UHGV virus genome: UHGV-1430915
Reading direction: 5' to 3' (one strand)
Length of the DNA: 64,000 nucleotides
Origin: a virus
Shown one piece after another: positions 11,621-13,400 of this stretch. Positions within the stretch are counted from its first letter, which is position 1. The number at the start of each line of letters is the position of its first letter. Under the pieces are notes generated by a model. It had not been told where the DNA came from. It worked only from the letters and a program-made list of their open reading frames with translations, and searched no databases. Made by a program: the position numbers and the translations under genes.

Positions 11621-11649
11621 ATTTTATCACGGCAAATACTGATTGTCAA
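11621..11649 (-). promoter_or_regulatory. sigma70-like promoter
   Basis: minus strand TTGACA-17 nt-TAAAAT, ~20 nt upstream of RBS of 11254..11592. Confidence 0.55.
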
Positions 11650-11880
11650 GTTCGCCGCAGGGTGGTATTCCCTGCGACTTGCCCAGCGTCCTGGACCAGC
11701 AAGACCCAACAAGTGGGTTACCAGATACCCATTACCGCGCTCTGGCTCGACCTTATTACAGGTTGGCTGGGGTCACATCGTCATGTGCTGGCTGCCCCTA
11801 CCATTTTAAGTGTGGTGCACTATCAAGCCCTCTAAGGGGAACTCAGACTTCTCCGAACCCTGTTTCAAAGCATCCGGAGA
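11640..11880. other. GC-rich ORF-free island A; candidate structured RNA or repeat boundary
   Basis: ~55 percent GC block in AT-rich context, only implausible overlapping ORFs on both strands, hairpin GCAGGG-N7-CCCTGC; shares motif GTGnTGCACTAT..AG.CCC with island B. Confidence 0.3.
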
Positions 11881-11937
11881 TAAAGCCATCAAACTCATCT
11901 TTAAATTGGATATTCATCATGATACACGAAAACAACC

Positions 11938-12180
11938 TCATTGTAAAGCACAAATAAATAAAACATACTTAATTTGTTTGTTATCGGGCTCAGGGTAGAA
12001 GTAGAAGATCTTGCTATCACCAATCTGAACACCACCATCCCAACAACATAAACCATAACCAGTATTCATACAAGCTAAGTCGTTGGCAAAATCTATTGCA
12101 TCATCTAGTGCACGAAATTCACCTTCATCTTCTAAATAATCCTCATTCATGGAACGGAAAACGAGCTTAACCTTAAACAT
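11938..12180 (-). CDS. hypothetical protein
   Basis: 80-aa ORF. Confidence 0.45.
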   Translation of the reverse strand: MFKVKLVFRSMNEDYLEDEGEFRALDDAIDFANDLACMNTGYGLCCWDGGVQIGDSKIFYFYPEPDNKQIKYVLFICALQ

Positions 12181-12256
12181 AGCATTACCTGTAGACCTCG
12201 TAAGTTAAAATTGTATCACATCATATTGCAGATCTTATCAGGTAACATTATTTTTG

Positions 12257-12445
12257 TCAACAGATTCCGGCCTTATCCTTCCTGTCTGCGTATTCTTTAA
12301 TCGCAACCTCACCTGCATTGGTAACCAGATCTTCAAAGTAATTCTCAAGCTCCTCGTCAATGTCCGGTGACCAGCTCTTTTTCCTGTCAGTGTGAATTGC
12401 AGACTTGTTGAACTTATTACAATTCTTTGCTACCGGATTGTTCAT
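12257..12445 (-). CDS. hypothetical protein
   Basis: 62-aa ORF. Confidence 0.4.
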   Translation of the reverse strand: MNNPVAKNCNKFNKSAIHTDRKKSWSPDIDEELENYFEDLVTNAGEVAIKEYADRKDKAGIC

Positions 12446-12455
12446 TAAGCTCTCC

Positions 12456-13034
12456 TCAACGTTCGTAGTAAATCTTATTCAACATTACCTCATCGTTTGC
12501 AGAAAGGATATCAAGATATGCATCACCAAATCTGCCTGCAACAACCTCTGCATGATACATCACTTCGTTAACATCGTCAAGAGTGATAACAGGATGACCA
12601 TATCTTTCTGAATATTGTCTCAGTGTGCGATGCAACGAGTCGTCATCATATGCAGACTTTTTAATATCACAAACACGACGAATGGCCTTGATGTCGAAAA
12701 AACCTGTGCGATACCACCCAAGAAAAAAGTTCCGTGTAGTGTCAACATCTACATCAATACCATTAAGAACCTTATCTACAAGATAGCTGTCATCCTTTGG
12801 ACTAGCGTCCTTAGTGCGAATGTAGTTGCCATCTTTTCCAGGTGATAGCTCCTTCTCATCACCAACCTGCATGCCATCATTTGGCGGTGTTAGCCACTTA
12901 TCAGGATGCTTACGATCACGAGCGTTAGAATGATTACGCTGGAAACCTGGCTTCCACTTGAAAGTTTTCTCCATCTGTTCTTCATTCTGATAACGTTTTG
13001 CAATCTTTTCGCTGGCATCTTTGCGTGAACTCAT
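12456..13034 (-). CDS. hypothetical protein
   Basis: 192-aa ORF, charged, no recognisable motif. Confidence 0.55.
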   Translation of the reverse strand: MSSRKDASEKIAKRYQNEEQMEKTFKWKPGFQRNHSNARDRKHPDKWLTPPNDGMQVGDEKELSPGKDGNYIRTKDASPKDDSYLVDKVLNGIDVDVDTTRNFFLGWYRTGFFDIKAIRRVCDIKKSAYDDDSLHRTLRQYSERYGHPVITLDDVNEVMYHAEVVAGRFGDAYLDILSANDEVMLNKIYYER

Positions 13035-13164
13035 AGCAGCCTCCTCTTCAAGTTATAGAAAAACTCACTGTATCGCTTTGTAACGAGCTTTTCTATCAAA
13101 CTGGTGCGATTGCCTTACTTGGTATAGTTTATATAGCTGTGGAGCGATTTAGGGGCCTTCTTGT

Positions 13165-13400
13165 CAGTTTCCACACATAACTTTATCCGAACTCGCGCGG
13201 GAGGCTCTCAACCGACTCCTTCCGGCGCTGGCAAGCTTTCGTCGGTGGTCCACATTAGTGCTCGGCCTTTGGCCTGCGCTATCGCTTCGCTCCCACACAT
13301 GTTAACAGTCCTGCATGTATGCACTTCTGTTATTGTGTGCACTATGGAGGCCCGGCATCTCGCCCCCCCGTAGGCGAGTGCCAATGAAGGGCCGACACTA
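13165..13400. other. GC-rich ORF-free island B; candidate structured RNA or repeat boundary
   Basis: GC-rich block with several hairpins (CTCGCC-N9-GGCGAG, GGCC-TTT-GGCC), only low-complexity overlapping ORFs; related to island A. Confidence 0.3.

Follow-up and report, generated by a model that had tools for sequence, protein, structure and literature searches.

We examined a stretch of 64,000 nucleotides from the virus genome UHGV-1430915 (hereafter, the window). We focused on two GC-rich regions, island 1 (11640-11880) and island 2 (13165-13400), which lie on either side of the open reading frames (ORFs) at 11938-13034. The genes in this part of the window are on the minus strand. Seven tRNA genes (10346-11157, minus strand; from ARAGORN and the map of ORFs) adjoin island 1, as an initial annotation of the sequence had noted. 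A megablast search with positions 11200-13700 identified the window as an rV5/FV3-like Vequintavirus, with 120 phage records matching at 90-99% identity. (The "Campylobacter phage" records among the matches belong to the same rV5/FV3-like group.) We found that island 1 encodes a structured RNA whose family is spread widely among phages, as supported by covariation, and that the two islands are different, unrelated things.

Both islands are GC-richer than their surroundings, as had been claimed: the GC content is 54.4% in island 1 and 57.2% in island 2, versus 42.7% in the window. Among all 240-nt segments of the 64 kb, island 1 is at the 99.7th percentile and island 2 is at the 100th. The view that the islands carry only implausible ORFs also held up. 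Both contain just short overlapping ORFs, and both read as non-coding. The islands are also conserved across the genus, in about 120 records of Vequintavirus. None of the matched records has an RNA annotated in either island, and some records call short ORFs there.

The RNA family is defined here by an alignment (A2) and a covariance model (R1), with 53 distinct sequences that align easily over 49 columns. The consensus is a three-way junction. Helix P1 (4-6 base pairs, with a bulged G after the first pair) encloses helices P2 and P3. P2 (ACCU/AGGU, with a six-base loop) follows P1 without a linker, P3 also has no linker, and the junction strand J3/1 is UAA. Of the cells in the 53 sequences, 90.4% are paired; column shuffles give 75.9%, and sliding the partners gives 30-46%. 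Covariation scores 0.381, compared with 0.111 after shuffling, and none of 500 shuffles scored as high. Each of the three inner pairs of P1 occurs as 3-5 types of pair, and the P3 pair of columns 27 and 34 occurs as CG, UA, or GC. None of the covarying columns of P1 and P3 were fixed by our search patterns. For island 1, then, folding with covariation across related phages, which had been suggested as a check, supports the fold. Also, G-U and U-G pairs are frequent and are valid on the minus strand only, so the functional strand is the transcribed minus strand. Selection acts on the sense-strand RNA fold in island 1.

In the window, R1 has a full-length match at 11771-11723 on the minus strand (64.9 bits, E = 1e-25), and this is the only convincing copy in the 64 kb. 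P1 is formed by 11768-11764 with 11731-11726 (G11730 is bulged); P2 spans 11763-11750, with the loop GUAAUA; P3 spans 11749-11735; and J3/1 (UAA) is at 11734-11732. The family's P2 sequence is present as CCUGUAAUAAGG at 11762-11751. There is another exact CCTGTAATAAGG at 17028, inside a coding gene, and a weak match to R1 at 19401-19448, antisense within a 427-amino-acid ORF; we attribute both to chance. When we scanned for copies with the P2 loop left free, we recovered only U-R-U-R-R-N-A-A (UGUAANAA, UGUGAAAA, UGUAGNAA, and UAUAAUAA). The covariance model added a copy whose P2 loop is UGCAAAAA.

Alternatively, conservation might act on the DNA and not on the RNA, for instance on a packaging or recombination site or on part of an origin. 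Island 2 does adjoin iterons and an AT-rich stretch (described below), and the island-1 motif is often near terminase genes. However, in island 1, compensatory changes maintain the pairing, and the many G-U pairs would be mismatches on the other strand. Furthermore, the copy in T4 is far from that phage's terminase genes and known origins. We consider a DNA-level explanation to be very unlikely.

The three-way junction is part of a larger structure. Directly 5' of P1 is a bipartite hairpin, U, which comprises a helix (Ua), a 5' internal loop of 7-10 nt, and a second helix (Ub) capped by a short loop. Ua covaries between lineages (GGGG/CCCC, GGAAC/GUUCC, GCGU/ACGC, GCAA/UUGC, and GUGC/GCAC), as does Ub (CAUG/CAUG versus CAUC/GAUG). 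The internal loop is complementary to 4-7 nt just after P1, which would form a pseudoknot. In the window, hairpin U is at 11769-11798 (minus strand): Ua is GGGG/CCCC (11798-11795 with 11772-11769), the internal loop is CAGCCAG (11794-11788), and Ub is CACAU-GACG-AUGUG (11787-11774), with a single A between Ub and CCCC. Within the internal loop, GCCAG (11792-11788) pairs with CUGGU (11720-11724), the 3' strand of the pseudoknot. (Rows L129 and L131 of our alignment are identical to the window here.) The whole structured domain in the window is thus 11798-11720, or about 80 nt.

The loop and the tail change together across lineages. Besides GCCAG/CUGGU in the window, the compensatory sets are GUGAGGG/CCCUUAC, GAGG/CCUC, GGGUA with UACCC or UAUCC, GGGAG/CUCCC, GCCUA/UAGGU, ACCAA/UUGGU, and CUCCG/CGGAG. 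Among 24 parsed representatives, a loop-tail helix of at least 5 base pairs is available in 42% of cognate combinations versus 12% of non-cognate combinations (P = 6e-5, Mann-Whitney test); a version of this test based on duplex energies gave P = 0.0017. In most T4-like phages, the 5' partner is upstream of the hairpin, so that the long-range helix is nested instead of pseudoknotted. By eye, this nested helix still covaries (GCCGA/UCGGU, CACAC/GUGUG, and CGAC/GUCG).

Based on an alignment of 9 Vequintavirinae sequences and on the predicted fold, the non-coding RNA region of island 1 spans about 190 nt (11650-11842, minus strand). It consists of a 5' hairpin module, the pseudoknotted three-way-junction domain, and three 3' hairpins. 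The 5' module (11799-11842, minus strand) has a hairpin with CCCC/GGG(G), then CUUGAUA, and then the hairpin AGUG-CACCA-CACU; it includes the motif GTGGTGCACTATCAAGCCC that the initial annotation had singled out. The 3' hairpins (11718-11704, 11696-11681, and 11679-11655, together 11655-11718, minus strand) were predicted in both minimum-free-energy and centroid folds, and no U-tract terminator was called there. The region is also found in a distant group of Vequintavirinae (loci L063, L067, and L071), with 66-69% identity, and both the 5' module and the domain are kept. The 5' module is identical in the V5 group and in this distant group, which has a second, similar copy of it after the three-way junction.

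In Vequintavirinae, two promoter-like sites flank a non-coding unit of about 170-190 nt that holds the domain. The gene for a small basic/acidic protein and the tRNA array come just downstream. In L067, TTGACA-17-TATACT (11 of 12 consensus positions, with an extended -10) lies about 7 nt upstream of the RNA, and about 170 nt farther on comes another promoter-like site (8428-8456 and 8633-8661 are the two sites that bracket the RNA). In the window, a sigma-70-like promoter (TTGACA-17-TAAAAT, 11 of 12 with an extended TG; 11621-11649, minus strand) is annotated as P74 in rV5 (NC_011041). It probably serves the ORF at 11592-11254 and possibly the tRNA array, and it would mark the 3' limit of the RNA region. 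On the other side, there is a weaker promoter-like site (TTTACA-17-TATCAT, 10 of 12; 11919-11947, minus strand), a match to the consensus only, that could drive both a small ORF and the island-1 RNA. The small ORF (MMNIQFKDEFDGFISGCFETGFGEV, 11843-11920, minus strand) occupies the left part of the intergenic gap and overlaps the stop codon of the upstream gene. Some records annotate it, and it overlaps the left edge of island 1. The end of its peptide (KDEFDGF, then the stop codon) is also found in L067 (around 8400-8425), where the ORF would have only 8 codons.

We then asked which other genomes have this RNA. A sensitive blastn search with island 1 matched 682 records. Over 500 records of T4-like phages (Tequatrovirus) share a 45-nt piece (11770-11726 of the window) at 91-95% identity and in the sense orientation. 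In T4, the copy follows denV closely, in the spacer between denV and vs.8, where it falls within the first part of vs.8 as annotated. Alignment to the vs.8 profile of PHROG begins only at residue 40, so the start codon of vs.8 was probably mis-called, and the piece is probably intergenic. (The annotated vs.8 that covers the motif is at 1487-2137 of L018, which is 64242-64892 of phage T4T, HM137666; in that record, the spacer is at about 64,800-64,920.) Separately, the core of vs.8 is weakly similar to the ATPase of the terminase large subunit (phrog_2, E = 1.7e-5). T4-like loci (for example, L008 at 6660-6720, L010, and L015) also have a conserved stretch, AUGGAC...GUGCCA(A/C)GGAAUGGCCC, between the motif and the start codon of vs.8, which may be a lineage-specific extension or a translational element.

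Scans of IMG/VR with degenerate patterns yielded about 70 diverse loci. The carriers include T4-like contigs, 46-kb contigs resembling Klebsiella siphoviruses, contigs resembling Vibrio phages, and one contig of 360 kb. Among the named carriers are Straboviridae of Klebsiella, Citrobacter, Enterobacter, Erwinia, Yersinia, and Kosakonia, along with Vibrio phages of 60 and 130 kb. The matched site is unannotated in nearly all of these named records; a few have a hypothetical protein there. The motif sometimes occurs as tandem copies about 85-115 nt apart (L012 at 5092-5251, L048 at 9020-9180, and L046 at 829-962); one of the copies in L046 has the variant P2 loop CCUGCAAAAAGG.

The motif appears to be nearly confined to phages. 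E. coli genomes have nothing similar to the island-1 piece. In 185,579 bacterial and archaeal genomes, we found 53 matches to the patterns, and all but one of these scored 15-31 bits with R1, versus 48-67 bits for true phage copies. The sole non-viral copy in the viral range (47 bits; L108 at 4522-4572) is on the 949-kb plasmid pPLMAXa of Pseudomonas sp. PLMAX, and there is no tRNA near it within the 8-kb locus. We came across no account of the motif when searching the literature. (It may be among the 8,495 unnamed candidate RNAs that were catalogued from IMG/VR in 2023, PMC10690425.) Apparently, this family of RNAs with a three-way junction and a pseudoknot, shared by T4 and many other phages, has not been described.

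Outside of the T4-like phages, the motif travels with tRNA genes. Of 30 such loci, 20 have a tRNA gene within about 1.1 kb, and every nearby tRNA is on the same strand as the motif. The motif precedes the tRNA array in Vequintavirinae and Klebsiella siphoviruses, lies between tRNAs in the Vibrio group and in L053, and follows the last tRNA in L022, L039, L040, and L059. In L059, no further element separates it from a hairpin that, by eye, resembles a terminator.

Two side observations concern the tRNA regions. First, a 98-nt tRNA-like gene in the window's array (10590-10688, minus strand) has a four-base anticodon (atcc) according to ARAGORN and scores only 35.5 bits with Rfam's tRNA model; in other records, it is called tRNA-Lys or tRNA-OTHER or is left out. 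Second, L032, a contig that resembles Vibrio phages, has an abiF RNA motif (Rfam RF03085, 45.4 bits with a gathering score of 37; 3624-3655, minus strand) just 17 nt from a tRNA. It shares this tRNA region with the three-way-junction motif and could be a phage copy of an RNA from a defence system.

The genes downstream of the motif raise the question of a cis-acting role. In five loci (L040, L042, L053, L133, and L163), an all-against-all comparison of neighboring ORFs revealed, on the same strand and 0.35-2.3 kb downstream, a gene for a basic/acidic protein of 135-165 amino acids. The candidate in L057 carries a GNPNGRP motif, and a protein from each of L062 and L165 matches a family of small terminases (phrog_606). 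In several of these loci, the gene for the large terminase follows directly. In the window, the large terminase is at 9241-7694, and the ORF at 11592-11254 (minus strand; p112, phrog_3330) has a basic, AT-hook-like N-terminus (KKRRRRGRP) and an acidic C-terminus. We considered whether p112 is the small terminase, but it resembles the proteins of the five loci only weakly: the phrog match was weak (E = 0.0035) and the hhalign comparison was not significant (E = 0.067), so we treat this as a lead only.

The domain might therefore be a leader that acts in cis on downstream tRNA, terminase, or vs.8 genes, as a put-like antiterminator, an RNA stabiliser, or a riboswitch. This would fit with the motif's position in T4-like phages, where it invariably precedes vs.8 in the sense orientation; with its position upstream of the tRNA array in Vequintavirinae and Klebsiella siphoviruses; and with the candidate or annotated small-terminase genes at those eight loci. 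The terminator-like hairpin after the motif in L059 could also be viewed as part of a leader. On the other hand, the downstream genes vary by lineage, some loci have tandem copies, and the motif lies after the tRNAs in four loci. Both groups of Vequintavirinae have strong promoter-like sites between the motif and the next gene, and no adjacent expression platform is conserved across lineages. We think that a leader is rather unlikely. A free-standing RNA explains the data better than the leader of a single gene does, because the motif's place relative to the tRNAs varies and there are tandem copies, because there are promoter-like sites both before the RNA and between it and the next gene, and because one copy is at the end of an operon, before a terminator-like hairpin.

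We also compared the motif to known RNAs. For both islands, Rfam 15, whose families include tRNA, tmRNA, Y RNA, twister, pistol, hatchet, hammerhead, and riboswitches, gave no match at the gathering score or at E ≤ 10, and the only Rfam matches in the window were to tRNAs. Similarly, Rfam gave no match (E ≤ 5) at the motif's position in ten other loci, and ARAGORN found no tRNA or tmRNA in the islands. (A match to rli43 was due to chance and was in the AT-rich and iteron-containing stretch beside island 2.)

In architecture, the domain resembles ribozymes like that of hepatitis delta virus (HDV). In HDV-like ribozymes, the order of the helices is P1-P2-P3-P1'-P4-P2', and the theta ribozymes of this type are carried by phages and associated with tRNAs (PMC10879173). 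The motif has a matching nested double pseudoknot, with Ua, the 5' strand of the pseudoknot, Ub, Ua', the three-way junction, and the 3' strand of the pseudoknot, in that order. This raises the possibility that the domain is a new self-cleaving or otherwise catalytic RNA, which might process the transcripts of tRNA operons and late genes, a role that HDV-like theta ribozymes and hammerheads have in other phages. A ribozyme would also fit with the compact pseudoknotted fold, the nearly invariant junction, the tandem copies, the phage-only distribution, and the association with tRNAs. But the details do not match. HDV-like ribozymes have a P1 of 6-7 base pairs, and their L3 and J1/4 form P1.1. 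In the motif, Ua has just 4-6 base pairs, Ua' abuts P1 of the junction directly, and the three-way junction takes the place of P4. The loops of Ub are only 3-4 nt in most lineages (GACG, GAAA, or GCAA), which leaves nothing for P1.1. There is no unpaired C at the first position of J4/2, where HDV-like ribozymes have their catalytic cytosine, and the spacer between P1 and the pseudoknot is just 0-2 nt (V5, L026, and L050); it is AU in the window and has no nucleotides in L131, L026, and L050. Furthermore, theta ribozymes are within 5 nt of a tRNA, on either side, while the typical distance from the motif to the nearest tRNA is 20-600 nt, and the Rfam searches found no match to a ribozyme model at E ≤ 5-10. 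Overall, catalysis of this kind is distinctly unlikely.

Other comparisons show partial similarities as well. The initial annotation had likened the islands to the small stable RNAs of T4. The species 1 and 2 RNAs of T4 (rnaC and rnaD) are indeed phage-encoded and non-coding, with no established function, and they come from a tRNA cluster and are presumably freed by tRNA-processing enzymes. But R1 matches nothing in L132, the T4 tRNA region with both rnaC and rnaD, and T4's copy of the motif is elsewhere, between denV and vs.8. GOLLD and ROOL are orphan structured RNAs of phages and prophages that are often adjacent to tRNA genes. In contrast to the motif, which is about 80 nt, lacks Rfam matches, and is found in phages of Gammaproteobacteria, these are ornate multimeric RNAs of 500-800 nt from Firmicutes and from lake and rumen phages (PMC12286853).

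The motif's P2 (CCU-GUAAAA-AGG) is reminiscent of boxB from lambda's nutR, which is CCCU-GAAAA-AGGG: there is about one extra base in the loop, and the loop is GNRA-like (G/A-N-R...A). However, the motif's P2 is embedded in the three-way-junction and pseudoknot domain. An N-like arginine-rich partner protein does not seem to be the explanation, as such a neighbor is found only in Vequintavirinae (the gene with KKRRRRGRP). The pRNA of phi29 is another phage RNA with a three-way junction, and the motif is just upstream of terminase genes in several lineages. This likeness is one of architecture, and T4's copy is not near genes 16 and 17. (Packaging by T4 works in vitro without RNA.) We considered two kinds of mimicry as well. 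P2 (CUGUAA) could mimic the anticodon loop of tRNA-Tyr, but this idea was weakened by natural variants with GUG, AUA, or GCA as the "anticodon." Mimicry of the host's rRNA is not supported, as the best match of R1 in an E. coli rrn operon was 6.9 bits (E = 0.5).

We then returned to island 2 and to its relationship with island 1. The initial annotation had proposed that the two islands share a core motif. Their best local alignment scores 19, versus 18.4 ± 2.2 for shuffled sequences, and 128 of 300 shuffles were as good. This alignment consists only of TGTG(G)TGCACTAT, and in the island-2 copy of phage pangalan, the "core motif" reads GGGCCTCTTTGGTGCAC, so it is not kept within the genus. (Aligning the islands globally with MAFFT was not informative.) Nor does island 2 share the fold: R1 has no match in 13035-13700 (E ≤ 10 with filters off). 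Island 1 has homologs outside of the genus and island 2 has none. In particular, L067 has island 1 but not island 2, and no fold of island 2 has any covariation. It is true that both islands are GC-rich, non-coding, and conserved, and that each has a hairpin followed by YYNAUAGUGCAC. Nevertheless, it is most improbable that the islands are paralogous small RNAs. Of the suggestion that they are paralogous stable RNAs co-expressed with tRNAs, the part that survives is that island 1 encodes a structured RNA, which in other phages is found in tRNA operons. The paralogy is not supported, because island 2 has neither the sequence nor the fold of island 1.

The other suggestion, that the islands are direct repeats at the ends of an inserted three-gene moron cassette, is hardly credible. 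The islands do bracket the ORFs at 11938-13034, but they contain no significant repeat, and each of the ORFs has its own promoter-like site. Relatives that lack the intervening genes would be informative, but the cassette is kept in 118 of 120 relatives, with the same arrangement in all of the roughly 118 full-length ones. In L067, the genes are split and not jointly missing: the genes for proteins of 62 and 80 amino acids remain beside island 1, while the gene for a 192-amino-acid protein is 7.4 kb away on the other strand. There, it adjoins an ordinary gene and a hairpin, without any sequence like island 2.

Island 2 itself is a conserved GC-rich non-coding element (13140-13405, strand not assigned) that is limited to the genus Vequintavirus: it matches only 119 records, all from that genus. 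Among seven relatives, the differences are two 1-nt indels, one deletion of 3 nt, and one of 18 nt, which argues that island 2 is non-coding; the sequence is otherwise nearly invariant. The longer deletion, found in rV5 and Pr121LW, takes away the tip of one of the predicted hairpins, and by eye, a 7-bp stem can still form.

On the upstream side of island 2 (considering the minus strand) are the features of a probable lambda-like replication origin (13404-13623). Next to island 2 is a stretch with 19% GC and long inverted repeats (13404-13535) that is almost invariant in the seven relatives. It is followed by four head-to-tail repeats of 21-22 bp, each with the dyad TGTCCG-N5-CGGACA (13538-13623). 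The repeats are directly downstream of an ORF (13695-14045, minus strand) that matches phrog_12838 ("replication initiation protein") and HTH_36. Lambda's origin likewise has four dyad iterons and an AT-rich region. Because there is no covariation in island 2, its nature is a guess from its position: the reading that fits best is that it belongs to the origin region or is a leader for the gene of the 192-amino-acid protein. The window also has genes of the RNA-repair type at 14093-16101, a short way upstream of the origin-like region and the tRNA array. They encode a phosphoesterase, an RnlA-like RNA ligase, and a P-loop kinase that one record annotates as a polynucleotide kinase.

Putting this together, we somewhat favor the view that the island-1 RNA is a free-standing, stable RNA that goes with the tRNA operon, and that island 2 is a separate element associated with the origin. 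The island-1 unit would be transcribed with or beside the tRNA operon, and it would accumulate as a discrete and stably folded RNA that is freed by the same processing as the tRNAs. The P2 loop and the junction are nearly invariant, which implies a specific partner, either a protein or an RNA; this partner would be common to the phages that infect Gammaproteobacteria or to their hosts. It is unlikely that the RNA serves to regulate any single gene downstream.

Several caveats weigh against this view. First, the RNA's ends and its stability are predicted from the sequence. Second, the columns of P2 and of the junction were partly fixed by the search patterns. Third, the folding energy is unexceptional (z = -1.55 and -1.67), and the z-scores across tests, from -0.57 to -1.67, do not discriminate. 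Fourth, an earlier version of the pseudoknot test, which considered the longest helix over wide windows, was not significant (P = 0.56); we replaced it with the test that is confined to the parsed internal loop. In T4 itself, the pseudoknot has only 3 base pairs. Fifth, the window's upstream promoter-like site is the weaker one (10 of 12) and would also transcribe the small ORF. Sixth, in T4-like phages, the motif sits between denV and vs.8 (sometimes in tandem) and always precedes vs.8. This constant place before vs.8, along with the candidate or annotated small-terminase genes 0.35-2.3 kb downstream in at least 7 other lineages, could mean that the RNA acts in cis. As for the separate reading of island 2 as an RNA, RNAalifold found compensatory changes at none of its 72 predicted pairs.

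More tentatively, the domain might represent a new class of functional RNA with a specific activity. It could be a ribozyme, or it could dock onto tRNAs or onto a tRNA-handling enzyme so as to manipulate or protect the pool of tRNAs. Such a class could be carried in the tRNA operons of many virulent phages of Gammaproteobacteria, T4 included. We regard this possibility as doubtful but worth considering.

Phage tRNA clusters are now understood mainly as a counter to host defences that target tRNAs and to codon mismatch. A conserved folded RNA that travels with tRNA clusters across unrelated families of phages would be a further player. The same fold is present but unannotated in T4, partly under the probably mis-called start of vs.8, so it can be tested in the best genetic system for phages. 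Finally, hundreds of deposited phage genomes are now given spurious small ORFs at a site that the covariance model identifies as a non-coding gene.

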